A stretch of DNA of 64,000 bases from an uncultured Eggerthellaceae bacterium (GCA_947626195.1 CANQRF010000007.1:15948-79947), one strand, 5' to 3'; numbered from the stretch's first letter, positions 853 through 32,336 are shown. Notes: generated from the letters alone by a model not told the origin. Numbers and translations are program-made.

Positions 853-2301
853 TCATAAGCTGAAAGATTCGTGTTTTCTATTTTTATTTCGAACCATATT
901 CTCTGTAGCTTTTCTGGTAGTCATAAGAGATACTTTTTTATGATTGGAAATCTTAGCACTTCCTGTTTCGCTTGAAAATATCGCATAGATAATTTGAAAA
1001 ATGACAAGTTGTGAGAAGTTGTAGGCAAAGCCGAAGCAAAAAAGGGAAACGATTAGCGCTCTCATCCAACCGGAGTATTTTCTGAAATAACTCCAGTACA
1101 TAACAAGGTAACAAATCCCCCCAGCAATCCCCACCCCAGCAAAAACCGACGCGAAGTCTGATTCAATTGTCCACACCCTCCCAAGAAACTCATTTCCTAA
1201 ATACTCTTCAATCGCATTGTGATAGCTTGTAAAAATAACGCCTGAGGATTTAAAACCAACTCCAAGCACCGATATATCTGGTGTAAGCGAAGTAAGCTGA
1301 ATAAATGTTTCCGGGATAAGCAACAAGTGCCTTGCCGTTCCTATATCATCCGTTAAAATGAGCATAGAGCCTTGGTTATTGAATAAATTGAATCTGTATA
1401 GGAATTTTAACAAAGTCTCCTGAATTGCAGGAATGTTTATTAATAAAACAACAATAGCTACTATTACTATTATTTTAATAGTAATAGTAGCTATTGTTGT
1501 TTTTGTAATAACAGAACTGCCACTTCTCTTATTGTCGAAGAGTCCAATTATTATAAAGGCAAGGAAAAGTGCTGCAAAACCGAGAATAGTGGCACGTTGT
1601 GTTGAAAGAGCTGCGCACAAAAAATAAATTCCTCTAAAGTAATTGCTCTCATCAATAGCAAATCCTATTATCAATAAAAATCCAAGAAAAGCACCTTCGT
1701 GGTTCAGACCAGTTAATCGAAAGGCATTTCCTATTTGGGTACCAGATAGATTAGTCCATTCCTCCTGTCCCAATCCTCCTAGAAAATCCCCCAGAAAAAC
1801 TTCAGTCAGATTGAAGTTAAAAATAGTCCATAAAATATATTGCGCGATTGCCCATAACGCCTGTATTCGACACGTGTACTTGAGAGAAAGCTTTAGACTA
1901 TCAACTACTCTGTTTCTGGAATATAGCAATATACATAAAGGTAGCGCTAATACTGCAATTTGTATTGCAGTATATATATTTGTTTGAAGATATTCATTCG
2001 GAAGAAATGTTCGCGTTAAGGCCAAGATTGAAGAAAGCAAGCAAATTAATAAAAACCAGAAATATGGAGTTTTGACCGGGATGGAGATCCTTTTCATGGT
2101 AAACAGAAGATAAAGAAGCAGAGGGATGGGGGCTATAGTGTTTAATGAAATACTATCGATTTTAAGCAATCCATCGGTCATTGCTTCTAAATCAATACTT
2201 GAGCCAACGATAGACGAAAAGAAAACTGCGATAAAACATACCATGAGCTCTAAGCTATTATTTCTATTTTTTATTTTTTTCTGAGCCATGCTCTTATTCA
2301 T
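853..2301 (-). CDS. Polytopic membrane protein, Wzy-type O-antigen/EPS polymerase or O-antigen-ligase-like
   Basis: 482 aa and very hydrophobic, with about 10 or more predicted TM segments and one larger polar loop. It lies inside a glycan gene cluster. Assignment rests on topology and context only, with no strong motif. Confidence 0.5.
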   Translation of the reverse strand: MNKSMAQKKIKNRNNSLELMVCFIAVFFSSIVGSSIDLEAMTDGLLKIDSISLNTIAPIPLLLYLLFTMKRISIPVKTPYFWFLLICLLSSILALTRTFLPNEYLQTNIYTAIQIAVLALPLCILLYSRNRVVDSLKLSLKYTCRIQALWAIAQYILWTIFNFNLTEVFLGDFLGGLGQEEWTNLSGTQIGNAFRLTGLNHEGAFLGFLLIIGFAIDESNYFRGIYFLCAALSTQRATILGFAALFLAFIIIGLFDNKRSGSSVITKTTIATITIKIIVIVAIVVLLINIPAIQETLLKFLYRFNLFNNQGSMLILTDDIGTARHLLLIPETFIQLTSLTPDISVLGVGFKSSGVIFTSYHNAIEEYLGNEFLGRVWTIESDFASVFAGVGIAGGICYLVMYWSYFRKYSGWMRALIVSLFCFGFAYNFSQLVIFQIIYAIFSSETGSAKISNHKKVSLMTTRKATENMVRNKNRKHESFSL

Positions 2302-2324
2302 TCAATTATAGACAAATGCTCTAT

Positions 2325-3368
2325 TCATTCGGATAAATATTCAAGGAGATTAATTGCTGAAGATTTCCATGAATATTTCTGCAGAATATTATTGGCCGTT
2401 TCTTCGTGCGTTTCAGATAATAAGGTTTTGATGCGAATATTTGGGTCTTCGGGATTTATATAAATCGCAGAGTCCCCGTAAACTTCGCGGAACACCGGAA
2501 TATCCGATATGACAATTCTTGCACCTAAAGAGAGTGCTTCCAAAGGTGGCATCCCAAAACCCTCGTATAATGAAGGGAATAAAAAAGCTTTGCAGCTCTT
2601 CATGAGGAGAGCTAGGATTGCATCGCTTACATAACCAAGCTCAATCACATTCGGCAGAAGCGTGGTCGCATCATCTTTATAAACCCTCCCGTTTACATCA
2701 CCAGCAAAAACAAAGATTTCTTCAGGATTATATTGAGCAAGCTTCGTTATCCATGAGAAATTTTTATACTTTGCCCGCGAGGCAACTGCGAGTAAAAAAC
2801 CTTTTTCTTGAAGCCCTAATGATACGAGCGAAGACACATCAGCTACATTGATTTCCGTCATATGTTGCCACCCGGGGGCAACAACCGTCATCTTGTCTGC
2901 GATTTTGGGGTAAATTTTTTTAACTTCCGACACGGTAAAGTAAGACGTGGCAAAGAATTTTTCTCCCTTTTGCTCATACCGTCTAAAAAGCGTCCGATAC
3001 CAAAGCTTATAAAAGGAAGAGTACGCTTCTGCAAAGTTGCGGAAAAGTAGGTCATGGACGCACACCACGCCTGGATACGAAAGAGGTGCCGCGTTGCAGA
3101 GGTTTAACGGCGTTCTATTCACTCTCTTTGCATACGATGGAAATTCCGTTTGCTCCCACATCACACCAGTCTTTGTACCTAAAGCAATAATTTCAATGTT
3201 TTTTAGGCTAAGATCATTTAGGATCTTATCGTGAGGACAAGCAAGCATAAACATTCCTTGCGGGACAATGCGATCAAGTGCCAAAACAAGTTCTTTGGCG
3301 TAGCGTTGCACTCCGGTTAAGCGCTGAGTTAAGAACTTTCCATTGATGGCATATCTTTTTTTCGTCAT
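2325..3368 (-). CDS. Glycosyltransferase family 4 (GT-B, group 1)
   Basis: 347 aa. The C-terminal signature FPSLYEGFGMPPLEALSLGARIVISD matches the E-x7-E/EGFG motif of retaining GT4 enzymes. Confidence 0.75.
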   Translation of the reverse strand: MTKKRYAINGKFLTQRLTGVQRYAKELVLALDRIVPQGMFMLACPHDKILNDLSLKNIEIIALGTKTGVMWEQTEFPSYAKRVNRTPLNLCNAAPLSYPGVVCVHDLLFRNFAEAYSSFYKLWYRTLFRRYEQKGEKFFATSYFTVSEVKKIYPKIADKMTVVAPGWQHMTEINVADVSSLVSLGLQEKGFLLAVASRAKYKNFSWITKLAQYNPEEIFVFAGDVNGRVYKDDATTLLPNVIELGYVSDAILALLMKSCKAFLFPSLYEGFGMPPLEALSLGARIVISDIPVFREVYGDSAIYINPEDPNIRIKTLLSETHEETANNILQKYSWKSSAINLLEYLSE

Positions 3369-16075: not shown

Positions 16076-17032
16076 ATGCGCAGGCAAACTTTCGAAGGGA
16101 TGGCTTGGCACATAATGGCGTCAAAACACAGCAGTAATACACCACGGCGCCAGCCAAGCCACTCCGCCTCTTCACAGCACTCCACAGTTGACCGGCCTCA
16201 GCGGCAAGACCGTGGGAAGCAGCCCCCCAGCACCCCGAAGAAGAGGAAACCCTCCACAATCGCGCTTGCCATCGTCCTGGCCGTTTTGATTGCTATCGTA
16301 GCGGGAGGTATCGGCTACATCGTATGGCAAAACGCCGAGATGCAGCGTGCCGCCGAGGAGCTGAAGAACACGCCCATCCCCGAAACGCCCGTGGCTAACG
16401 ACACGCCTGAGAACGTGGCGCCGGACAACCGCGTGGAGAACCCCATTGATTTCGCAACACTTATGGCGGAAAACCCCGATATCTATGCCTGGATCTACAT
16501 CCCTGGGACCAATGTGAACTACCCCATCGTGCAAAACCCCAATGACGACAGCTTCTATCTTGACCATAACGATCATCAGGAATACGCTGCCGAGGGCGCT
16601 GTCTATTCCGAGATGCAAAACGACAAGCAATTCACCGATCCGGTGACCGTGCTCTATGGCCACACGATGAACGACACGAGCATTATGTTCGGCACGCTGC
16701 ATTACTTCGAAGACCCCCAGTTCTTCGAGCAAAACGACACGATGTACATTTACACACCCACCGAGATACTCACCTACCGCATTATCAGTGCCTACATCTA
16801 CGACAACCGCCACATCCTGAATTCCTTCAACTTCTCTGAGCGGAGCGTTCTGCAGGAATATTTCGATTACGTGGCGAACCCGTCTTCGATTATCAGCAGC
16901 GTTCGCAGCGGCACGGCCTTGGATGCGGCGACCAGCCGAATCGTGCAGCTGAGCACCTGCACTTCCACCCACGACCGCCAGAGCCGCTATATCGTCACAG
17001 GAGAATTGGTTGATGAGCAAGAGACCTTCTGA
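16076..17032 (+). CDS. srtB: Class B sortase
   Basis: Cytoplasmic tail and TM (IALAIVLAVLIAIVAGGIGYIV). Then NPDIYAWIYIPGTNVNYPIVQ, catalytic His in VLYGHTMND, Cys in IVQLSTC and Arg in SRYIVTG. The start is uncertain (candidates at 16013 TTG and ATGs at 16076, 16100, 16115). Confidence 0.8.
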   Translation: MRRQTFEGMAWHIMASKHSSNTPRRQPSHSASSQHSTVDRPQRQDRGKQPPSTPKKRKPSTIALAIVLAVLIAIVAGGIGYIVWQNAEMQRAAEELKNTPIPETPVANDTPENVAPDNRVENPIDFATLMAENPDIYAWIYIPGTNVNYPIVQNPNDDSFYLDHNDHQEYAAEGAVYSEMQNDKQFTDPVTVLYGHTMNDTSIMFGTLHYFEDPQFFEQNDTMYIYTPTEILTYRIISAYIYDNRHILNSFNFSERSVLQEYFDYVANPSSIISSVRSGTALDAATSRIVQLSTCTSTHDRQSRYIVTGELVDEQETF

Positions 17033-18344
17033 TTACCCGAACCAGCCGCGCCCAACACAGCGCGACTCAAAGCAGAGCTCACCCGCCATATACGGCATGC
17101 CCCAGCAGAGCCGCTCTGCAGCCAATCGTTCGCAGGCCACCTCTTCTTCATCCTACCATCAGCCAAAGCATCGTTCGTCCTCCAGTGAGCTTTCGCGCGA
17201 ATACGTGAAAACGAAGGACGGCACGACGATCGTCCGCGTGAAGAAGCGTAAGAACAAGGCGAGGCGCCGCATCATCATTGTAGCGGTGGTCGTGCTTGCC
17301 ATCGTGGGCATCGGCGCCGGCACGGTGTTCGGCCTTACCTCGATGGGCAAGGCAAACCTTCACCAAGCACCCGAAGAGATCGAGGTGAACGAGGAGGCCG
17401 TTTCCTTTAACGATGGACGCACCGTCGAATACAACGGCCACACCTACGCATATAATGAGAACGTAGTGTCCATCTGCCTCATCGGCTACGACCGCACGGG
17501 CAACCAGGAGGAAGAGGGCATACGTGGCCAATCAGACGCCATTATGGTGGCCGCGCTCGACACCGAGACCGGCAAGGCGTCGGTGATTGCCATTCCGCGC
17601 AACTCCCTCGTTGATGTGCCCGAGTATTACAACGGGCAATACCTCGGCACCCAAAAGGATCAGATCTGCCTGGCCTTCGCCTCGGGCGCTAACGACGCCG
17701 AGAGCAGCGAGATCGTCACCACGGTGGCCTCGCGCGTGCTGTACAACATGCCTATCAACTATTACTACGCGATCGACCGGCAGGCGCTTGGCATGCTTGC
17801 CGACGCCATCGGCGGCGTGTCGCTGACCGCGCTGCAGACGATTCCCGGCACCAACATCTATGAGGGGGAGGATGTGATCCTCCTGGGGAACAACGCCATC
17901 AAGTATGTGCAGTGGCGCGACACCACGAACTACCTCTCCCCGCTCGATCGCCAGGAACGGCAGATCCAGTTCGTGAAAGCCCTTGCCTCGCAGGCGCTTT
18001 CCGCCCTGAAGAGCAACCCCTCGATCATCGTTGACCTCTTCAACGCGATGTCGTCCTATGCCACAACGAACCTTGGCGTGAGCGAGGTGAGCTATCTGGC
18101 GAGCGTGCTTGCCTCGCACGGCATTTCAGACCTGAATATGATCAAGCTTGAGGGAACGATGGAGCCGCGCGAGTATTCTTCGGAATTCATTCTCGACCAG
18201 AGCAGCGTTTACCAGACAGTGCTCGACGTGTACTACACGCAACTGCCCGATTCCGAGAGCACTGCTGCGGGCGATGCGAACGCTGCTGAAAACACCGCTT
18301 CAGAAGCCTCTGGCGCCGCAAGCGAAGGTAACAACGTCGAGTAA
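17010..18344 (+). CDS. LytR-CpsA-Psr (LCP) family cell-wall glycopolymer ligase
   Basis: 444 aa with an N-terminal disordered tail, a TM (RRIIIVAVVVLAIVGIGAG) and an LCP core (ICLIGYDRTG...SDAIMVAALDTETGKASVIAIPRNS). Confidence 0.85.
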   Translation: MMSKRPSDYPNQPRPTQRDSKQSSPAIYGMPQQSRSAANRSQATSSSSYHQPKHRSSSSELSREYVKTKDGTTIVRVKKRKNKARRRIIIVAVVVLAIVGIGAGTVFGLTSMGKANLHQAPEEIEVNEEAVSFNDGRTVEYNGHTYAYNENVVSICLIGYDRTGNQEEEGIRGQSDAIMVAALDTETGKASVIAIPRNSLVDVPEYYNGQYLGTQKDQICLAFASGANDAESSEIVTTVASRVLYNMPINYYYAIDRQALGMLADAIGGVSLTALQTIPGTNIYEGEDVILLGNNAIKYVQWRDTTNYLSPLDRQERQIQFVKALASQALSALKSNPSIIVDLFNAMSSYATTNLGVSEVSYLASVLASHGISDLNMIKLEGTMEPREYSSEFILDQSSVYQTVLDVYYTQLPDSESTAAGDANAAENTASEASGAASEGNNVE

Positions 18345-18498
18345 CACCGTTGAGTCATGGACGAGGGTGCAAGGCATTTCTCACTGTTCCACTTAGAGTA
18401 AATCAGCATCGGTTTAACTTTTGTTTAATCGTAATTAGTATAAATATGATATAACAATATCTGCTATCACGAAGACTTCTTTCTGAGAGGAATACACG

Positions 18499-19914
18499 AT
18501 GCCTTTTGTGGGCAGAAACGCCGAACTTTCAACTCTTGAGCGGCTCTATACGAGCGATCGCTTCCAAATGCCTATCATCTACGGGCGTCGCCGAGTCGGG
18601 AAAACATCGCTCATATCTCATTTCATCCAAGGAAAACCTGCAATTTATTTTTCTGCGATTGAATCAACCGCCAAAGAAAACCTTATGGCGCTCAGCAGGG
18701 CTATCGTAAGCTTGGAATCTGACGGCATTCCTCGTGCAAATGACGCGCCCGCGCTTACTTTCAACACTTTTGGCGAAGCCTTCACCTATGTGTTCGATTT
18801 GGCGCGCACGCGCCGCATCGTTTTCGTCATTGACGAATATCCTTATCTCGCGCTCAGCGATAGATCGGTCTCCTCGGTGCTGCAGCATCATATAGACACC
18901 GAAAAAGATACGAGCAAGCTCTTCCTCATTCTCTGCGGCTCGTCCATGAGCTTCATGGAGCATCAGGTGCTTGGCTACAAGAGCCCGCTCTATGGAAGGA
19001 GAACCGCCCAGATTCGCGTTAAGCCATTTACGATCATGCAAGCAGCAGAGCTTTTGCATACAAGCAACGCCGAAGATATCGTATCGTGGTACGGCATGGT
19101 CGGCGGGGTTCCCCTCTATCTTGAGCAGTTCGATCCAGCGATGAGCCTGCAGGAAAACATGGCGTTCAACGTCCTGCGGCCTGCCTCGTTTCTTTACGGT
19201 GAGCCCGACTCATTTCTGCAGCAAGAGATACGGGAACCAGCGCGCTACAATGCTCTCATCCGGACGATTGCCGAAGGCGAGGGCAAGCTCACTGAGATTG
19301 CCGATTCGACAGGCATTGAGCGCTCTGCCGCCACGAGCTACCTAAAAGGTCTCATGGAGCTTGGCATCATCCGCCAAGAGAAGCCGGTAGTTGATGCGAA
19401 TCGAAAAAAGGTGCGCTACGTTTTATCTGACAACCTTTTCAGGTTCTGGTATCGCTTTGTGCCGCGGTATCTCACGCCCATCCAGGCAGGACGTTTCAAG
19501 GAAGTGGGTTCCCTCATCGCAAGCAAGCATCTCAGCTCCTTTCTGGGTCCCGCGTTCGAAGAGATATGCCGTCAATGGCTCGTTGCCTCTATGGGCACAA
19601 ATGACATTCCGCTCATTCTCGACATCGGACGATGGTGGGGAAACGACCCGCTGCGAAAGGAGCAGGCAGAGATGGACATCGTCGCTATCTGCGAAGATGG
19701 CAGCTTGATCTGCGGAGAATGCAAGTGGCGGGAAAAGCCCGTTGATGCATCCGTGCTAGCTACCCTGCAACATCGAGCCGACCTCATCAAGGAGGATCGT
19801 TTCGTGCGCTTCCTCCTGTTCTCGAAGAGCGGTTTCACCGATGAGTGCCGTGCGGCGGCTGAGAAAGCGAATTGCGTGCTCATAAGCCTTGCCGACATGG
19901 GCCTTGGCGCCTAG
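18499..19914 (+). CDS. AAA+ ATPase of the archaeal-ATPase/DUF234 family with C-terminal PD-(D/E)XK-like module
   Basis: FVGRNAELSTLERLY...IYGRRRVGKTSL (Walker A) and VFVIDEYPYL (Walker B). The C-terminus EMDIVAI...GECKWREK resembles the D..E.K nuclease-fold signature of DUF234. The upstream region is AT-rich. Confidence 0.75.
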   Translation: MPFVGRNAELSTLERLYTSDRFQMPIIYGRRRVGKTSLISHFIQGKPAIYFSAIESTAKENLMALSRAIVSLESDGIPRANDAPALTFNTFGEAFTYVFDLARTRRIVFVIDEYPYLALSDRSVSSVLQHHIDTEKDTSKLFLILCGSSMSFMEHQVLGYKSPLYGRRTAQIRVKPFTIMQAAELLHTSNAEDIVSWYGMVGGVPLYLEQFDPAMSLQENMAFNVLRPASFLYGEPDSFLQQEIREPARYNALIRTIAEGEGKLTEIADSTGIERSAATSYLKGLMELGIIRQEKPVVDANRKKVRYVLSDNLFRFWYRFVPRYLTPIQAGRFKEVGSLIASKHLSSFLGPAFEEICRQWLVASMGTNDIPLILDIGRWWGNDPLRKEQAEMDIVAICEDGSLICGECKWREKPVDASVLATLQHRADLIKEDRFVRFLLFSKSGFTDECRAAAEKANCVLISLADMGLGA

Positions 19915-20156
19915 TTATTGGGCAATGATCGCCCTGTTCTTTTTGGAGCTGTGGCGGGAGGTGCGAAGACATCGGACACGAAAACGACATTCGGATGCTA
20001 GACGGGAAGGGCGATAGTAGCAGCTATCGCCCTAACATAAAAACCAAGCGCCGCCCGTCCCTTTAATGTCTATCGGGCTTTGCCAGCTCCTATTCTACCA
20101 TCTTTCGCGCTCCGCGCCTATACCCGGCACCCGTTCTGTAAGAAACCGTCATTTAC
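19901..20156 (+). repeat. Direct repeat copy A (about 250 bp), partner at 23870-24118
   Basis: By-eye alignment to 23870-24118 gives roughly 80-90 percent identity with two small indels. It includes a shared small ORF, a shared hairpin and the shared block TATCGGGCTTTGCCAGC...ATTCTACCATCTT...CCGTTCTGTAAGAAACCGTCA. Confidence 0.85.
19925..20017 (+). CDS. Possible 30-aa peptide (N-terminally shortened copy of the 23849-23980 peptide)
   Basis: ATG at 19925 gives MIALFFLELWREVRRHRTRKRHSDARREGR with stop TAG at 20015-20017 inside the hairpin stem. Same frame and stop position as copy B. Expression is not shown. Confidence 0.25.
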   Translation: MIALFFLELWREVRRHRTRKRHSDARREGR

Positions 20157-20293
20157 CGCAAAGGCGGCCCACTACTGCATTCGCAGTTTAGCAAATGCGC
20201 ATACAGTATTCACGACTATTTAACCAGCGAGCACGATTTTGCTTTGCCTAATCTAAATTAGTCTAATCGTAATTAGACAAAATCATTTCATAT

Positions 20294-20382
20294 ATACCAG
20301 CAGCCAAAACTGGCTGATAAACACGATTGGTACCAGCAATCAACAAATATTGGTACCGCGGATAAACAACCTTGGTACCGCT
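20294..20382 (+). repeat. Left inverted-repeat arm with phased GGTACC-centred sites
   Basis: TTGGTACC at 20327-20334, 20350-20357 and 20372-20379 (22-23 bp apart), plus a degenerate ATACCAGCA at 20294. The arm aligns in reverse complement to 21916-21993. Confidence 0.75.
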
Positions 20383-20622
20383 TAGACTGAGCCTACAATC
20401 CCGTTCGTGCGCCCAATACGAGGCGACATGACGAAAAAGGACCCGATGCCTATGTCGAAGAGCAGAAAGATCATTATGATGCTTGCCAAAGGAGAGTCGA
20501 GCAAGACCGATACCGCAACGGCGCTGCACGTGATCAAGCGCGACGTGTCGGCGGCTTCGGCATCGTCCTTCCCCATATCCGGCGCTGGTAAAATAAGCGG
20601 GAACGTAAGAGACGGAGGATAG

Positions 20623-21773
20623 ATGCAGCAGTTCGAAAACGCCAGCGATAGCGCCCAGAATATTCCAGACGGTGTCTGGAATATTCAGAATACATCCAAT
20701 GAGCTGGCTTTTCCCAACGATATCCGATTCGACAACCACCCATCATTCGACGAGTTGGCCGATGCCATCGAGCAGGTCACAGAGCTCGCCCGCAACATGG
20801 CGGCGCGGCATGTGTATGGCGACCAGCTCTGGGCGTATTGGAACAACGGCAGGATGATCGTCGTATACGAGCAGGACGGGAGCGATCGGGCCGCGTATGG
20901 CGACCAGGCCCTCACCAAGCTCGCAAGGCGCCTGACCGCAAAGCTGGGACGGGGCTTCTCGCGTGCGAACCTCTACAACATGCGCCTGCTCTACCTCACC
21001 CACAGGAACTTCCAGACGCTGTCTGGAAAATTGTCATGGTCCCATTACTGCGAGACCATCACCTTAGAAGACGAGCTGAAACGGAAGTTCTACGAGCGCG
21101 AGGCCGCGAACTCGGGCTGGAGCGTCCGCGAGCTGCGCAGGCAGATGAACAGCCTGCTCTTCGAGCGCATACTGAACGCCAAGGACGATGCCAGGAGAGA
21201 ACACGTTCTGGCGCTGGCGAACGAAGGGGTGGCGTACAGCAAGCCCGCAGACGCCATTCGCAGCCCGCTCGTCCTCGAGTTCCTCGACATCCCCGACGAC
21301 GTCGCGCCTTTGGAGAGGGACCTCCAGCGGGCCCTGATCGGGCAGATCGAGAAGTTCATGCTCGAGCTCGGGCGGGGCTTCATGTTCGTGGGCAGCAACG
21401 TCCGGATCCCCGTCGGGGACGATACCGACTATGCGGACATGGTCTTCTACTGCAAGCCGCTTAGGGCATACGTGCTCATCGAGTTGAAGACGGACAAGCT
21501 GATGTCTTCGGCGGTGGGCCAGATCAACGAGTATCTGAACTACTACGCTGCCGAGGTCAACGACGAATACGACAATCCCCGATCGGCATCATCTTGTGCA
21601 CGGACAAGAACAACGTTCGGGCGGAATACGTGATCGGAGGGTTGAGCAATGCGATTTTCGCCTCCACATACACTCTGAGGCTCCCCGACAAGGGGCAGCT
21701 GGAAGACCAGGTGCGCAGGACCATCGAGGCCAACGAGCGCAGGGCGCTCATAAGCGGCGGAGGTGATGCGTAG
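20623..21773 (+). pseudogene. DUF1016/YhcG-type PD-(D/E)XK nuclease gene, disrupted by a frameshift at a C-run
   Basis: The ORF 20623-21633 encodes ...YADMVFYCKPLRAYVLIELKTDKL (D...ELK nuclease motif) ...EYDNP, then leaves frame. The shifted frame from 21582 continues with IGIILCTDKNNVRAEYVIGGLSNAIFASTYTLRLPDKGQLE... to TAG at 21771-21773. This is the expected family C-terminus. The break lies at CCCC 21577-21580. Confidence 0.8.
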
Positions 21774-21915
21774 CCTCGACCCGGATGCGGAGCACTTCGC
21801 GTTTTTGGACGAGACGGCGGTCAGCGGAACTATCAACACGGTGCTGGCGGCGTCGTGTCTGGTGCGGGTTCATGGAAGCGCGCGATTACTTCGCCGAGAA
21901 GAAGCTGGCTGGATA

Positions 21916-21993
21916 GCAGTACCACCTGCTATTTACCCGCGGTACCAAAAATCATTGATCGTTGGTACCAAGCCAGCTGATTGCCGGTACTGC
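21916..21993 (+). repeat. Right inverted-repeat arm with phased GGTACC-centred sites
   Basis: AGTACC at 21918, GGTACC at 21941 and 21964 (the latter inside the palindrome TTGGTACCAA) and GGTACT at 21986, spaced 23, 23 and 22 bp. The flanks CGCGGTACCAA are the reverse complement of the left-arm TTGGTACCGCG. Confidence 0.75.
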
Positions 21994-22065
21994 GAGTGTT
22001 TATTACTCACCAAAACTGACACCGCTGCACTATCGCTTGCTTTGCTTTCATAAATCTGAAAACAT

Positions 22066-22142
22066 CGATTCGCACAATCTCATAGTTATGCGCATAATCT
22101 CAACTTTGTGCGAATAAAGTCATGATTGTGCGCATAATGGTT
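22066..22142 (+). repeat. Tandem array of four 20-bp units (core TGCGCATAA / palindrome TTATGCGCATAA) upstream of the AlbA_2 gene
   Basis: Cores at 22069 (TTCGCACAA), 22089 (TGCGCATAA), 22109 (TGCGAATAA) and 22129 (TGCGCATAA), with exact 20-bp phasing. The segment is AT-rich. Confidence 0.85.
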
Positions 22143-22205
22143 AGATTATACTGTTCCCCATAAGCTTTACAGCACCCATTACGACCCTTCGAAGATTGGA
22201 TATAT

Positions 22206-23397
22206 ATGGGCTTCATAAGCGATTACAAAGATCAAATCGAAGGCCAAAGCCTTGAATTTAAAGAAGCTGGAACTCGATTGCCGGCTAATCTTTGGGAAAC
22301 GTATTCGGCCTTTTCCAATACCGAAGGCGGTCAGATCATACTTGATGTATCTGAGCATCATAATGACGATGGCCAGTGACGATGAGCTTGCGCGAATGGA
22401 GCACGATGCGCTCTCTAATGCCGATAACGCCATTGTTGAAGATTTTGATATGTCGGCCTTCAATAGCTCAACGATCGCGACTTACCGAAATCTTCTCACT
22501 CATGAGAAGCCCTCTCACCCTTGGCTAAGAGACGATGACGAGGACTTTCTCTATCATTTACGTGCTATTGACCGTGATCGTGATGGCGAATACCACCCAA
22601 CCAGAGCGGGGCTCTTGGCATTCGGCAACGAGTTTGAGATATTGCGAATTGTCACTGATTACCATCTCGATTATCGTGAGCAAACTGATCCGGATGTTCG
22701 GTGGAACAATCGGCTCGACTCCATGAGCGGAGACTGGAGCGGCAATCTCATTGACTTCTACCTCAATGTCACACAGCGCATCGATCGAGCATTGCCCCAA
22801 TCGTTTGGCCTCAACGATAACGGGATGCGGCACACGAGCCGTACCGAAATCAACGATGCAATCCACGAGGCAATCGCAAACGCTTTGATTCACGCCTATT
22901 ATGGCACAGGCGCAACCGTTACAGTTGTTTTAGAGCCTCATAGGCTCTTGGTTTCCAATTCGGGGACGTTTCTTATCAGCAGGGAAGTTGCTATTGCGGG
23001 AGGGATAACCGAGACCCGTAACCCCATTCTTGCACGCATATTTTCACTTATTGGAATTATTGATCGTGCAGGCAGTGGGTTAAGGAAGATCTATTCAACC
23101 TGGGAAGAGAAGTTTAAGGAGACGCCCCTTCTTAAGGAGGCATACGCGCCGGATAAAGTTGATATTGAGCTGCCGCTTTCAATCAACTTCAACGTGAAAC
23201 GGCCTTACACACACGTTCCTCATGAGGCAATTCTTGACCTCTGCCATAATCAGGGCGAGATAACGGTGAAAGACCTCACAGCCCAGCTTGGAATGAAGCA
23301 AAGCACCGCTCAATTTGCCTTGAGGAGCCTTGCCGCACAGGGGCAACTTGTCAGCGAACGGAGGGGCAGGGCTTTCGTTTATCGTCTTGCGAATTAA
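22206..23397 (+). pseudogene. AlbA_2 (Schlafen-like) + HATPase_c_4 + C-terminal wHTH protein gene, frameshifted near the 5' end
   Basis: ATG at 22206 gives MGFISDYKDQIEGQSLEFKEAGTRLPANLWETYSAFSNTEGGQIILDVSEHHNDDGQ, stopping at 22377-22379. This is the hallmark AlbA_2 N-terminus (SLEFKE...AFSNTEGG). The rest of the protein (TRAGLLAFGNEFE..., ALIHAYYG..., wHTH LGMKQSTAQFALRSLAAQGQLVSERRG) is in a different frame, in ORF 22252-23397. Confidence 0.75.
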
Positions 23398-23456
23398 ATT
23401 GAATCGAGCCACGCGGTCATATACGCCTAAAGTTCCTTTGTTCGTTTAATCGAGCA

Positions 23457-23640
23457 AGAATGCGCACAATGACGAAATTGTGCGCATAATCTTAACTTTG
23501 TGCGAATAAAGTCATGATTGTGCGAATAAAGTTGTAATTATGCACATAAAGTTATCTTTAAACGCATAATCTGCCAATTGTGCGCATAATCTCATGATTA
23601 TGCGCGCAGGCTTAACTTTATGCGCAATGCGCGCATCCCC
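23457..23640 (+). repeat. Tandem array of nine 20-bp units (same family as 22066-22142) downstream of the AlbA_2 gene
   Basis: Cores start at 23461, 23481, 23501, 23521, 23541, 23561, 23581, 23601 and 23621 (TGCGCACAA, TGCGCATAA, TGCGAATAA, TGCGAATAA, TGCACATAA, AACGCATAA, TGCGCATAA, TGCGCGCAG, TGCGCAATG). The period is exactly 20 bp. A roughly 45-bp stretch (ATAATCTnAACTTTGTGCGAATAAAGTCATGATTGTGCG) is shared with the upstream array. Confidence 0.85.
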
Positions 23641-23848
23641 TTTTAACAAATCCTCCTACCCGTTCCATATGAAACCATCATCTATGAAGATGCTGCACTG
23701 CCCTTACTGGCACGATACGCAGCTGTCACACGGCGTAAAGTTTTTGGGTTTGTCAACAATGCTGGCATGCAGGCGCTTCCTGCGCTACCATGTTTCGGCT
23801 GGCAAGTCCGATGCCGGGCGGCGCTTCTTCATGGAAAGGAGCACCGCT

Positions 23849-23980
23849 ATGGTGGAACGAGTTCTAGCTGCCTTGGCAGCATTGGCAACGATAGCCCTGT
23901 TCTTTTTGGAACTGTGGCGGGAGGTGCGGAAACATCGGACACGAAAACGACATTCGGATGGTAGACGGAAAGGGCGATAG
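23849..23980 (+). CDS. Possible 43-aa small membrane peptide with strongly basic tail
   Basis: RBS-like GAAAGGAG lies 7 nt upstream of the ATG at 23849. The peptide is MVERVLAALAALATIALFFLELWREVRKHRTRKRHSDGRRKGR, one hydrophobic helix plus an Arg/Lys-rich tail. The 28 C-terminal residues are conserved in repeat copy A. The listed 128-aa ORF start (23594) lies in the repeat array and is not credible. Confidence 0.35.
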   Translation: MVERVLAALAALATIALFFLELWREVRKHRTRKRHSDGRRKGR

Positions 23981-24118
23981 CGGCAACTATCGCCCCTAAT
24001 TAAAAAACCGGCGCCGCCCGTGGCTGTAAGTCTTATCGGGCTTTGCCAGCACATATTCTACCATCTTCCGCATCCTGTGCCCATACCCCCGCCCGTTCTG
24101 TAAGAAACCGTCACTTAC
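23870..24118 (+). repeat. Direct repeat copy B, partner of 19901-20156
   Basis: See copy A. This copy abuts the stop codon of ecfT (24115-24117). Hairpin GGGCGATAG-CGGCAA-CTATCGCCC here versus GGGCGATAG-TAGCAG-CTATCGCCC in copy A: identical stems, different loops. Confidence 0.85.
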
Positions 24119-24885
24119 AACAAGACGCCGAGGAGGATGGCAACAACCAAAATGCACACGCAGATGACGAGCGAGACGACATCGAGCGTCGCGAAGGGAT
24201 ACTGCTTATAGCCGCTCTCGCGCGTGCGGAGGTTGAACCCGCGCACCTCGGCGGCGATCGCCGCGCTGTTCGTCTTGCGCACCGACGACACCAGCAGCGG
24301 GATGCACAGCGGCACCATCAGACGGATCTTCTTCACGATGGAACCCTGGTCGAACTGCACGCCGCGCGCCGTCTGCGCCTCCATGATACCCGCCATGTCG
24401 TTCATGAACACGGGGATGAAGTGCACCGTGGAGGTGAACGTGAACGCGTATTTGTAGGGCACGTGCAGCACCTTCACCACCGAGTTCGCGAGGTCGGTCA
24501 TCTTGGTCACATACATCACGAGGAAAAGCGGCACGGCAGCCGCCACGAGGCGCAGGATGATCGTCACCGCGCCGATGACGCCGCCCGTGCCGATGTAGCC
24601 CCACGGCAGCGGAACGAGCACCATGCCGGTGGAGTTCGTGAGCAGCTGGATGACGGCGAGGATGAGCGAGAATATCGTCACCGCCTTCGCAAGGCCCATC
24701 GCCTGACGCGTCATCTTGCAATGCGCCGCCAAGGCGAAATCGAAGATGAGGACGCACGCGAGGAATATGAGGTTCGACGTGCAGAAGCACGCGACCGAGA
24801 TGAGCAGCGCGCAGAACAGCTTTGCAACGGGGTTCATCCGATGAAGCAAGCTGTTGCCCGGCACGTATTCGAGAAACCCTGTCAT
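24115..24885 (-). CDS. ecfT: ECF transporter transmembrane (T) component
   Basis: 256 aa polytopic protein with a typical EcfT N-terminus (YVPGNSLLHRMNPVAKL) and the Ala-Arg-Gly coupling motif (MEAQTARGV). It follows two ECF ATPase genes. Confidence 0.85.
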   Translation of the reverse strand: MTGFLEYVPGNSLLHRMNPVAKLFCALLISVACFCTSNLIFLACVLIFDFALAAHCKMTRQAMGLAKAVTIFSLILAVIQLLTNSTGMVLVPLPWGYIGTGGVIGAVTIILRLVAAAVPLFLVMYVTKMTDLANSVVKVLHVPYKYAFTFTSTVHFIPVFMNDMAGIMEAQTARGVQFDQGSIVKKIRLMVPLCIPLLVSSVRKTNSAAIAAEVRGFNLRTRESGYKQYPFATLDVVSLVICVCILVVAILLGVLL

Positions 24886-29735: not shown

Positions 29736-30662
29736 TCATGCGTGGACGGCGAGGGGCAAGAACGCCTCGTTGACGATGACATGGAACATCTCGTGATAGA
29801 ATTCGCGCTCTACGGCAGGGAGAAGCGATAGCCCGAACGCCTCTTCGGGCACTGAATCGAGGATTTCGTCAATGGCGCTGAGATCTAAAGCCTGCGCTAC
29901 GCGCGAAATAGCAGCTTTCATCTGCGGATCCTCAGATTCGTGCATAAACTTGAAGGGATGGATGTGCTTCCCCTCATTATCAAGATAGAAGGAGACCCCC
30001 GTTTTGAGAGCATCCTCCCGCAGAAGCCCTTCGCCTTTTATGCGTGAGGCAAACACTTCTTCCAAGCGTTTCCCGAAAAGACAGCTCCCATTGTCGTAAA
30101 CCGGCGCAAGAACGCCGCTCTTTCCATCGGGCGAAGCTAAAACACCCCAATTGCCGTTGTTTCGATCGCCGTTTCTGATAAGGGCATCCACGACGAACAT
30201 ATCCCAAAAACGCTCGATCACCCCCTCGGTGTTTTGGAGGGTAAGCGAATGATCGATCACGGCGAGAATATCCGAGAGATATTCCCCGCCCTCATCTGAG
30301 CTGCTGGTCTGCAGCCCCGCGTCCTCCTCGTGAAGGCGGTTCTTCAGAAGCGAGATTTCGACAAGCCGCCGGTCTACGGCGAAGTCCTTGCATGCGCACA
30401 CAACACGCCCGTCGCGGACGCCGAGCAGCGTCTCGTGAACAGGGATGCCGAGCGAGGCATAGATGTGCGACCCGATATACTCGCATATCGGATTGGTGGC
30501 ATATGAAGGGTGATTGCCCCGCAGCCGCTTCAAGGACGCGGGAAATTTCAGCATCCATCGCTCGCCATCGATGTCGATGGCATATTTGGTGGAGGCCCGA
30601 CCTCCATAAACGCCGGAATAGTCCTCTTCGAATTTATTGAAATCGTATATCTCTTGTGTCAC
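29736..30662 (-). CDS. HipA-C/CtkA-like serine/threonine kinase, stand-alone
   Basis: 308 aa. WMLKFP (ATP-binding Lys region), catalytic-loop-like DALIRNGDRNNGNWG and DFG-equivalent APVYDNGS. No HipA N-domain is present. It starts 24 bp after the recN stop on the same strand. Confidence 0.65.
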   Translation of the reverse strand: MTQEIYDFNKFEEDYSGVYGGRASTKYAIDIDGERWMLKFPASLKRLRGNHPSYATNPICEYIGSHIYASLGIPVHETLLGVRDGRVVCACKDFAVDRRLVEISLLKNRLHEEDAGLQTSSSDEGGEYLSDILAVIDHSLTLQNTEGVIERFWDMFVVDALIRNGDRNNGNWGVLASPDGKSGVLAPVYDNGSCLFGKRLEEVFASRIKGEGLLREDALKTGVSFYLDNEGKHIHPFKFMHESEDPQMKAAISRVAQALDLSAIDEILDSVPEEAFGLSLLPAVEREFYHEMFHVIVNEAFLPLAVHA

Positions 30663-30686
30663 TGAACCATCACCTCTGAAGCGCCA

Positions 30687-32336
30687 TCAGCTTAACCCGT
30701 TTTTGCCGCTAGGAAAACCAGCGGAAGCTAGAAGCTCGCGGGCGTGGGCGAGGGAGGCTTCGGTCTGGCTACCGGAAAGCATGCGGGCGATCTCGCCGAC
30801 GCGCTCTTCATCTGATAGCTCCACAATGTGAGTGGTCGAGGCTTTTTTCGCATTGCCCTCGCGCATGACGCGGAAATGGCGGTTGGCATAGACGGCCACC
30901 TGCGCCAGATGCGTGACGACGATCACCTGATGAGTGAGCGAGAGCTCGGCAATGAGCTCGCCGAGCGCCTGGGCGGTCGCGCCACCGACGCCGGCGTCCA
31001 CCTCATCGAACACGAGCGACGCCACCTTGTCTCTCGTCCCGAGCACCACCTTGATGGCGAGCATCACGCGGCTTACCTCGCCTCCCGAGGCGATCTTCGC
31101 GAGCGGACGCGCGCTCAGGCCCTTCCCCGGGCGGAAGCAGAACTCAACGCTTTGCGGCGAATGGGCACTCCACTGCTCACGCGGCAAATCGGTGACCTCG
31201 CAGGTGAGCTCGGCGCCGTTCATCTGGAGGCGATCCATCTGCCCGCTCACCTGACGAGCGAACTGCGGGGCAATCTTCCGACGTGCCTTGCCGAGCTCCC
31301 GCGCCGCCTTATCCAGCGCCGCCTCGGCGGCGTCAAGCTCGGCGAGGGCCTTCTCACGGCGTTCCGTGGCATCGTCGACCATTCCCAGAAGCCGCGCCGC
31401 CTCGTCGCGCCGCGCGAACACCTCTTCCATCGTGGGGCCAAAGGCGCGCATGAGCCCTTGGAAGGCGGCAAGCCGCTCCTGCGCAGCGGCAAGCGCCTCG
31501 CCGTCGAACTCGACCTTATCGCGATAGGCGCGCATCTCACGCGACACGTCTTCGAGCATGTAGCTCGCATCGCGCAGCGTGGCAAGCGGCTTCTCGAGCG
31601 ACCCATCGTAAGCAGCCGCGTTTTCCAAGGTGGAGAGCGCCGACGAGATGCGATCAAGCGCCCCGTCCTCATCGGCAAGCGCCTCATACGCGCCGTTCGC
31701 ACCCATCGCCAGCACTTCAGCGTGCTCGGCGCGATGCGTGTCGCTGACGAGCGCTTCATATTCGCCCACCGAAGGGCTCACCGCCTCGATGCGGGAAAGC
31801 GTGAAGCGCGCCTCTTCGAGCGAGGCATCTGAGAGCGCCGCCGCATGGTCGATCTCCGCAAGCGCCGCGCTCGCCGCCTGTGCGTGCCCAAACGCTTCCT
31901 TATAAGCGTGCTGCAACGGCGCTAGCTCTTCGCCTGCCCACAAATCCAAAAGCTCGCGGTGCGTGGCGGGGCGCATGAGCGATTGGTGCTCGTGCTGGCT
32001 GCAGAGATCGATCGCGTGGCCGACCTTCTGCGAGAGCTCGCCCAAGCTCACCATCTCGCCGTTGATCGTGGCGCGCGACCTGCCGTCGGCATTCACCTGG
32101 CGCGTGATGACGAGCTCGTCCTCGCCCAAGAACAGCCTTCCCGAAACGCGCAGGGCATCGGCGCCCTCGCGAATAAGGCCACGATCGCCCCGCTCCCCCA
32201 TCAGGAGCTTGAGCGCTGAAAGCAGCGCGGTCTTGCCCGCGCCGGTCTCGCCGGTGATGACCGTCAGCCCTTTGTCGGGCATAAGGGCAGCGGAAGTGAT
32301 GAGCGCGAGATTCTCGACGCGGATCTCATCGATCAT
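30687..32336 (-). CDS. recN: DNA repair protein RecN
   Basis: SMC-like protein with MIDEIRVENLALI, Walker A GETGAGKT, a long coiled coil, and C-terminal SGGE...LVFDEVDAGVGG. Start moved from the ORF start (32456) to the ATG at 32336, which gives the canonical N-terminus. Confidence 0.9.
   Translation of the reverse strand: MIDEIRVENLALITSAALMPDKGLTVITGETGAGKTALLSALKLLMGERGDRGLIREGADALRVSGRLFLGEDELVITRQVNADGRSRATINGEMVSLGELSQKVGHAIDLCSQHEHQSLMRPATHRELLDLWAGEELAPLQHAYKEAFGHAQAASAALAEIDHAAALSDASLEEARFTLSRIEAVSPSVGEYEALVSDTHRAEHAEVLAMGANGAYEALADEDGALDRISSALSTLENAAAYDGSLEKPLATLRDASYMLEDVSREMRAYRDKVEFDGEALAAAQERLAAFQGLMRAFGPTMEEVFARRDEAARLLGMVDDATERREKALAELDAAEAALDKAARELGKARRKIAPQFARQVSGQMDRLQMNGAELTCEVTDLPREQWSAHSPQSVEFCFRPGKGLSARPLAKIASGGEVSRVMLAIKVVLGTRDKVASLVFDEVDAGVGGATAQALGELIAELSLTHQVIVVTHLAQVAVYANRHFRVMREGNAKKASTTHIVELSDEERVGEIARMLSGSQTEASLAHARELLASAGFPSGKNGLS

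Follow-up and report, generated by a model that had tools for sequence, protein, structure and literature searches.

Variable regions, also called 'minimal mobile elements', and defence hotspots lie between conserved genes and have their content exchanged by homologous recombination, as described for Neisseria and in the defence-island literature. The region considered here belongs to a stretch of 64,000 nucleotides (the window) from an uncultured Eggerthellaceae bacterium of the gut (GCA_947626195.1, CANQRF010000007.1:15948-79947), in which the interval at 18.4-24.1 kb, between a LytR_cpsA_psr gene (the LCP gene, 17013-18344) and ecfT, holds a DUF234 ATPase gene, a DUF1016 nuclease gene and a bacterial Schlafen gene, together with two directly repeated copies, R1 and R2, of a module of ~245 bp. 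With the minimal mobile elements and defence hotspots this islet shares the presence of accessory defence-type genes by a conserved operon, the variation in content, the lack of a dedicated recombinase and the signs of decay; the difference is that here the homology used appears to be an internal module repeated within the locus and not confined to the flanking core genes.

Likewise, islands bounded by attL and attR at the 3' end of a gene resemble the islet in having bounding direct repeats, one of which overlaps the 3' end of ecfT, and an empty site with one copy. Here, however, there is no integrase, the repeats are 245-bp mosaics of 86% identity without a short identical core, and an extra copy is present elsewhere in the relative. 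Integron cassette arrays and integrase-less attC clusters again consist of genes followed by a conserved 3' element in series, with variation in order and content, and attC sites are shorter than ~150 bp. The element of the islet, in contrast, is 245 bp long, contains a coding open reading frame (ORF), forms two local hairpins without well-supported pairing of its ends, and has no intI gene within ~10 kb; the integron attC reading was rejected on structure (the two separate hairpins) and size. Finally, the repeats of type I toxin-antitoxin loci (LDR and Sib/Ibs in E. coli, the Fst, TxpA and BsrG types in Gram-positive bacteria) have in common with the module a direct repeat of a few hundred bp, a hydrophobic peptide of <60 amino acids ending in a charged tail, shared hairpins and, on the opposite strand, a conserved promoter-like site, but the module has no sequence match to the described families, and one copy per genome is 5'-truncated.

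We consider it somewhat better than an even chance (a probability of about 0.55) that the interval represents a lineage-specific, decaying set of defence-candidate genes, gained or lost by homologous recombination between copies of the module. As a class, variable accessory regions that recombination between repeats has remodelled are a known phenomenon.

The repeated module and its counterparts in a sister species

Alignment by blastn of 19917-20156 with 23881-24118 (86% identity over 243-244 columns, E 5e-70), with which a repeat search and MAFFT agree, shows to be real the imperfect direct repeat that an earlier, sequence-only reading of this DNA had reported, and blastn found no further copy in the window. 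The distal copy lies at the end of ecfT, as that reading had it, and covers the stop codon (24115-24117) and the last two codons of the gene. The informative comparison is with an uncultured Eggerthellaceae metagenome-assembled genome from rabbit gut, the sole close relative found, whose contig (L004) is ~87-88% identical in DNA and encodes an EcfT protein with 95% amino-acid identity to that of the window, as compared with <=77% for 79 other species representatives. In the orientation of the window, this contig carries a repeat copy (RA), 115 nt of unrelated DNA, the DUF234 promoter and gene, another repeat copy (RB), ecfT and the rest of the operon. The 3.7-kb segment with the DUF1016 and Schlafen genes is missing there, its place being taken by exactly one repeat copy, so that the empty site anticipated by the sequence-only reading does exist. 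RA, which is cut by the end of the contig, precedes DUF234, in a place that the LCP gene occupies in the window and where the window has no repeat; the repeat is therefore not simply a pair arising from one insertion. The LCP left flank is not common to the L004 contig.

The four copies (R1, R2, RA and RB) are 83-87% identical along their whole length, the longest identical run being ~29 bp within the interior ORF. Fifteen sites are parsimony-informative, and these are evenly divided, five grouping the copies by position (R1 with RB, R2 with RA), five by genome (R1 with R2, RA with RB) and five in the third possible manner. They fall in blocks along the repeat, the mosaic blocks being interior and away from the 22-nt box that forms its right end. 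Gene conversion or crossing-over between copies leaves such a distribution. The copies have therefore exchanged segments, and at least two of them predate the separation of the species. RB resembles R1 on its left and R2 in its middle block, a pattern which a deletion by crossing-over between R1 and R2 would leave, blurred by later conversion; both an insertion in the lineage of the window and a deletion in the sister lineage are possible.

The module is organised much like a gene. In R2, a 43-codon ORF (23849-23980), convergent with ecfT, is preceded at 7 nt by the ribosome-binding site GGAAAGGAG (23833-23841) and encodes the peptide MVERVLAALAALATIALFFLELWREVRKHRTRKRHSDGRRKGR, which has one strongly hydrophobic segment, predicted to form a membrane helix (Kyte-Doolittle 19-residue maximum 2.25), and a tail of charge +9. 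In all four copies this ORF runs uninterrupted to one shared stop codon and has no indels, as compared with 3 indels in the non-coding remainder. R1 and RB begin ~10 codons into it, directly after the natural stop of DUF234, and the C-terminus of the DUF234 protein (...DMGLGA) is normal for its family; R1 retains the last 30 codons (19925-20017), hairpin B (20009-20033), the region of hairpin A and the right-end box (20130-20151). A word-indexed protein search with the small ORF gave no match, and Pfam at E <= 10 returned only noise and no toxin family. An exhaustive HMMER search of 1.84 billion proteins found a 47-amino-acid homologue, P0195 (MFERIVYLLAALATIAAFLLEAWRMWKEHRKSRRRADDDGRKRRGRP), from another metagenome (E 2e-4, 50-55% identity), together with a variant, P0196. 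The ORF is taken to be a real small-protein gene, the expression of which is predicted only, and it appears to belong to a family of small membrane peptides mostly missed by gene callers.

On the 3' side of the small ORF, R2 has two hairpins, the stems of which are conserved and the loops variable. Hairpin A, which carries a U6 run and is the nearer to ecfT, is probably the terminator of the ecf operon, as judged from its predicted fold. Between hairpin A and the ecfT stop lies a promoter-like site on the opposite strand, whose -10 region, ATGGTAGAAT, does not vary among the four copies. No Rfam match was obtained in the region, either with the whole window at gathering thresholds or with 18000-24600 at E <= 1. 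The repeat was not found in the 79 other Eggerthellaceae ecfT loci (nhmmer profile), in JGI metagenome contigs (searched with two different conserved patterns) or in IMG/VR. Neither a relic of ecfT coding sequence in the right flank of R1 nor any relationship between the flanks of different copies scored above shuffles.

Contigs from four sample or run accessions, comprising two ENA metagenome assemblies and two Logan runs, match the window at 100% identity, and two ENA contigs (L001/L090 and L091) span both repeats and carry the lesions of both damaged genes, and therefore the arrangement is not a misassembly. Pfam identified no integrase or transposase among the called genes of L001 and L090 within ~10 kb on each side, and no integrase or recombinase domain in the ORFs inside the islet, in agreement with what had been noticed from the sequence alone.

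Proposed recombination between module copies and its rivals

Since the copies are evenly 83-87% identical over 245 bp, carry interior mosaic blocks, are differently placed in the two genomes and have a gene-like content, we infer that the locus was remodelled by homologous recombination between them. The ~245-bp repeat would then represent two paralogous copies of a small module normally arranged tail-to-tail with ecfT, R2 being the complete module and R1 a 5'-truncated copy fused behind DUF234. Several copies in the same orientation would act as portable homology, such that RecA-type recombination between two of them would delete the DNA between them and leave one chimeric copy, while the same recombination could also insert a repeat-bearing segment. 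The result would be the order DUF234-R1-(DUF1016, Schlafen)-R2-ecfT in the window as against R-DUF234-R-ecfT in the sister species. In this scheme the trapped segment would be composite, consisting of a Schlafen cassette with its own repeat arrays and a DUF1016 unit inserted separately into the upstream region of that cassette, and both genes would have been inactivated afterwards.

Several considerations weigh against this account. The L004 contig, which ends inside RA, comes from the only informative relative, and within the species there is no polymorphism among contigs with the same ecfT or LCP protein, all of them being 100% identical. Moreover, homologous recombination leaves the origin of the first duplication of the module unexplained, and that the small ORF is expressed, and that the antisense promoter and the terminator work as such, is a matter of prediction. 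Lastly, the ecfT stop marks the exact end of the homology and a relic of the 22-nt box stands alone at 23659-23680, and a site-specific mechanism targeting that box would give both as well.

Such a mechanism would integrate cassettes at the 3' end of ecfT, the 22-nt box (CCCGTTCTGTAAGAAACCGTCA) serving as the crossover core for a trans-acting Xer-like, tyrosine or serine recombinase encoded elsewhere, and circular cassettes, carrying the repeat body of ~220 bp as an attP-like arm, would stack in tandem, with R1, R2 and the relic as successive junctions. In all four copies the homology indeed runs out only a few bases from the stop codon of ecfT; no invariant block at the edge of the repeat is longer than the box, and its third, isolated occurrence is significant (a local alignment score of 24 against a shuffle mean of 13.6, with 0/300 shuffles better). 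In both species, each copy has a cassette on its 5' side and the next unit or ecfT on its 3' side, and the order of DUF234 and the full-length repeat copy differs between the species, as the shuffling of cassettes would give. However, no recombinase gene is found within 10 kb, the identity of 83-87% extends over the full length of the copies instead of being limited to a short identical core flanked by unrelated arms, the mosaic blocks occupy the interior of the repeat and not the box, the extra copy in L004 is at odds with a single insertion, the repeat body is organised as a small gene with terminator hairpins and not as a core with arms, and the absence of the repeat from the other ecfT loci and the metagenome collections gives no sign of a spreading system. 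We therefore regard site-specific integration as distinctly unlikely, and the suggestion of the sequence-only reading that the repeats are attL and attR is not upheld, even if the cassette-like arrangement which it described is borne out. Still more doubtful is the wider proposal that the module is the recombination substrate of an undescribed integron-like cassette system of the Coriobacteriia, in which crossover would occur at the 22-nt box, a recombinase encoded outside the locus would insert, remove and rearrange single defence-type genes, each followed by a module, at the ecfT 3' end, and the small peptide would provide an addiction function. To our knowledge, integrons are essentially unknown in this phylum.

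A different kind of explanation concerns what the repeat contains. The module could be an addiction module similar to type I toxin-antitoxin systems, with a peptide toxin and an antisense RNA antitoxin, the copies of which would persist by stabilising neighbouring genes, the direct-repeat geometry being a by-product. Several type I loci, for example LDR and Sib/Ibs in E. coli, were reportedly first noticed as long direct repeats. The 43-amino-acid peptide, for which one membrane helix is predicted and whose tail has a charge of +9, the good ribosome-binding site, the convergent layout with shared hairpins and the distant homologue P0195 all accord with this possibility, as does the minus-strand promoter-like sequence TGGGCA-17-TAGAAT with its upstream TG, which is invariant in the four copies. 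Furthermore, CUUCUUC pairs with the ribosome-binding site GGAAAGGAG in the minimum-free-energy fold of 23820-23900, but this fold is no better than those of shuffles (z = -0.7). There is no match to a Pfam toxin family or an Rfam RNA; R1 and RB are without the first ~10 codons and yet are conserved as well as the complete copies; and the promoter, being located between the ecfT stop and a terminator-like hairpin, may produce a transcript of perhaps only ~45 nt. On balance we hold a type I function to be unlikely as the explanation of the locus, and it would account for the content of the repeat but not for the gain and loss of the segment, so that it is compatible with homologous recombination between the copies and with a site-specific mechanism alike. 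The remaining possibility is that the repeat has no function and originated in a single chance event of local duplication of the 3' flank of ecfT, through slippage during replication or unequal crossing-over, with an unrelated deletion behind the difference from the sister species. The confinement of the repeat to two species, and the plausibility of part of it being just the ecf terminator, would agree with this. However, at least two copies are present in each of the two species, at different positions and with exchange between them, the edge of the segment missing in L004 coincides with repeat copies, and the small ORF is conserved and has a homologue outside; we accordingly give chance duplication very little credence.

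The genes of the islet and their surroundings

The Pfam assignments agree with those of the sequence-only reading for all three genes, and the spacer ahead of each is AT-rich, as had been remarked (G+C 0.38-0.40 against 0.55 for the whole window). The association with defence is likewise sustained, by profile matches in PADLOC for the DUF234 and DUF1016 genes and by domain architecture for the Schlafen gene, as is the picture of a decaying islet, two of the three genes being pseudogenes and only DUF234 intact, with defence functions that are candidate ones. The claim that two genes are frameshifted applies to DUF1016, which has lost a single nucleotide, whereas the lesion of the Schlafen gene is an internal deletion of ~256 nt and not a simple frameshift. 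Similarly, the description of three unrelated single genes is right as to their identities but too simple as to their arrangement, since the DUF1016 unit appears to be nested upstream of the Schlafen cassette. The features are collected in Table 1.

The DUF234 gene (18499-19914; 471 amino acids; ATPase_2, HTH_IclR and DUF234 in Pfam) matches the PADLOC candidate family PDC-S27 (E 2.7e-55). Homology with L004 begins at 18419 and continues at 88% DNA identity through the gene and the repeat. Upstream of the gene there is a CTAAT-N4-ATTAG palindrome (18420-18445), and an orphan pair of such palindromes sits just after R1; the motif, with N4 or N5, also occurs ahead of an 81%-identical DUF234 gene in another locus (L084, 284-328). 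These palindromes, found upstream of DUF234-type ATPase genes encoding an IclR-like helix-turn-helix (HTH), may be a putative autoregulatory operator.

The DUF1016 gene, which matches PADLOC PDC-S02 (E 1.3e-92), has lost one C from a C run near 21576-21579, and this frameshift breaks the conserved sequence ...DNP-PIGIILCTDKN.... Both PDC-S27 and PDC-S02 are only candidate families, named from genomic association, so that the likeness here is one of strong profile matches. DUF1016 proteins are known cargo of mobile and conjugative elements (PMC4316617). The unit has imperfect inverted-repeat ends (~20313-20383 and ~21916-22009; ~57 nt at ~80% complementarity), each with three GGTACC palindromes spaced 22-23 bp apart, the ends having the form ATAAACAC...TTGGTACC x3. 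At 1-6 nt outside these ends lies a 9-bp direct repeat, CCAAAACTG (20304-20312 and 22010-22018), which occurs only at these two places in the 64 kb, 0.36 occurrences being expected by chance. The unit therewith looks like a separate transposition-type insertion, nested upstream of the Schlafen cassette. It contains no recognisable transposase, its 56-amino-acid ORF being without a family match and its other gene encoding a PD-(D/E)XK nuclease, and blastn detected no further copy of its ends within the window. The DUF1016 copy of the window is frameshifted and lies within inverted-repeat ends and a 9-bp duplication, and no such unit was seen at the Collinsella homologue that was checked; the GGTACC inverted repeats were not seen around that homologue, and the idea that they are a general trait of DUF1016 genes was rejected.

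In the Schlafen gene, Pfam recognises a winged HTH as well as HATPase_c_4 and, at residues 12-54 of the first fragment, SLFN_AlbA_2. By tblastn, the gene shares 80% identity with an intact homologue of 488 amino acids (P0122), relative to which the deletion at ~22372-22376 removes residues 60-144 and breaks the frame, so that a full-length nuclease domain (>100 amino acids) is not present, most of it being deleted. The Slfn-HisKinase-HTH class is the second most common architecture of bacterial Schlafen (pSlfn) proteins, amounting to 19.2% of those found in a 2026 study (PMC13056530); the family was shown only in 2026 to include anti-phage effectors, and this class was not among the architectures picked for phage-challenge tests in that work. 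The window gene has the same combination of Slfn/AlbA_2, HATPase_c_4 and HTH domains, but unlike the described class it is a pseudogene without most of the nuclease domain.

Arrays of a 20-bp repeat lie on both sides of the Schlafen gene; the repeat unit is a 14-bp palindrome of the type ATTGTGCGCATAAT followed by a 6-bp spacer. Phased short-repeat arrays were found beside the Schlafen(AlbA_2)-HATPase_c_4-HTH genes of 465-500 amino acids in all ten loci examined, from two phyla, these being the window, seven Coriobacteriia loci (L094-L097, L101-L103) and two Firmicutes plasmids. The period is 10, 11, 20 or 30 bp, mostly 10, 11 or 20. The sequence of the repeat differs from one Schlafen homologue to another and is dyad-symmetric in the Coriobacteriia loci; in the two plasmids, 11-bp repeats form higher-order arrays that immediately precede the gene. 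Two separate contigs from the same sample, L101 and L102, carry 20.6 perfect copies and 10.6 copies, respectively. Three longer plasmid homologues (620-660 amino acids), which are embedded in operons, have no such arrays. Over 1.4 Mb of fetched loci, Tandem Repeats Finder (TRF) reported ten arrays with a period of 19-21 and >=2.8 copies, six of which adjoin these Schlafen genes. The simplest reading is that the HTH of each Schlafen protein would bind its own flanking array. In the main text of the bacterial Schlafen paper (PMC13056530) the word 'repeats' is not used. An interpretation of the 20-bp units as Xer/dif-like sites (11-6-11 geometry, with the arm GTGCGCATAA) was set aside, the units forming tandem arrays of up to 20 and changing in sequence with each homologue. 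Beside one Schlafen homologue (L096, 405-1607 and 3473-3808) there are an IS110-family transposase gene, DUF4143/AAA_14 genes, a TacA1 antitoxin gene and, on the opposite strand, an AlbA_2 fragment of 111 amino acids, a neighbourhood which suggests that Schlafen genes are often in mobile, rearranging surroundings.

Against phage records the insert at 20162-23868 gave no DNA match, and against plasmid records only two short matches, both internal to genes. In another relative, a helicase, an esterase, a PapA_C protein and HipBA are encoded between DUF234 and ecfT. The region beyond ecfT, which is the last gene of the ecfA-ecfA'-ecfT vitamin-transporter operon, is in general poorly conserved across the Eggerthellaceae: 337 ORFs downstream of ecfT in 68 species fall into 189 clusters, the largest of which covers 16 species. 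Beyond the opposite end of the ecf operon (~29736-32336; L001 2550-5150), a polysaccharide deacetylase gene and uvrB enclose a HipA_C-only kinase gene and a gene for a 549-amino-acid SMC_N/AAA_23 ATPase, which may constitute a second small pair of accessory or defence type. The Logan contigs of the same strain break at 19960 and 23801, inside or just outside the repeat copies, and repeat copies of 86% identity suffice to fragment short-read unitig assemblies.

Table 1. Features of the islet and its margins in the window, and repeat arrays at other Schlafen loci (contig coordinates for the latter)
Feature	Position	Strand	Basis
DUF234 cassette: promoter/operator region and ATPase gene	18419-19914	+	Pfam, PADLOC, L004 homology
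Repeat copy R1, 5'-truncated relative to R2	19915-20161	+	Starts right after DUF234 stop
Two tandem CTAAT-N4/5-ATTAG palindromes, resembling DUF234 operator	20243-20283	+	Direct-repeat search; TRF period 15
Transposon-like DUF1016 unit	20304-22018	+	Inverted repeats, 9-bp duplication, Pfam, PADLOC
56-amino-acid ORF upstream of DUF1016 gene	20452-20622	+	No family match
DUF1016_N/YhcG_C nuclease gene, frameshifted	20623-21773	+	Pfam
Upstream array, 4 units of 20 bp	22068-22150		Direct-repeat search; TRF period 20
Bacterial Schlafen pseudogene (AlbA_2/Slfn, HATPase_c_4, winged HTH)	22206-23397	+	Pfam; tblastn against P0122
Downstream array, ~10 units of the same 20-bp repeat	23440-23630		TRF period 20, 6.5 copies; periodicity score 0.67
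Isolated relic of 22-nt right-end box, 18/22 matches, no other part of the repeat attached	23659-23680	+	Repeat search
Repeat copy R2, complete module	23849-24123	+	Alignments, folds, ORF analysis
Hairpin B of R2	23971-23995	+	Fold
Hairpin A and U6 run of R2	24002-24049	-	Folds better than shuffles, z = -2.9
Promoter-like site in R2, TGGGCA-17-TAGAAT, extended -10 with upstream TG	24083-24055	-	Sequence motif
Right-end box of R2, 22 nt, CCCGTTCTGTAAGAAACCGTCA	24092-24113	+	Conserved edge reaching ecfT stop
ecfT (CbiQ family)	24115-24885	-	Pfam; gene calls on L001
Array, L095	283-590		
Array, L096	5422-5520		
Array, L097	5473-5562		
Array, L101	3982-4393		
Array, L102	3982-4193		
Arrays, L103	Flanks of 1777-3225		
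Array, L108	327-874		
Array, L109	596-830		

Significance for the Eggerthellaceae and Coriobacteriia

In itself the islet is an ordinary example of defence-type genes coming and going beside a core operon, and its main value is that of a clean, checkable case in which one- and two-copy states in sister species are accompanied by mosaic copies of the repeat. The small-peptide module and the arrays beside the Schlafen-HisKinase-HTH genes may matter more than the islet. The module, with its conserved small membrane peptide and antisense promoter-like site, is a candidate type I toxin-like module in the Coriobacteriia, a class in which we know of no characterised type I system. The arrays, if they are bound by the HTH of the Schlafen protein which they adjoin, would offer a testable handle on how Schlafen effectors are tethered, silenced or dosed.

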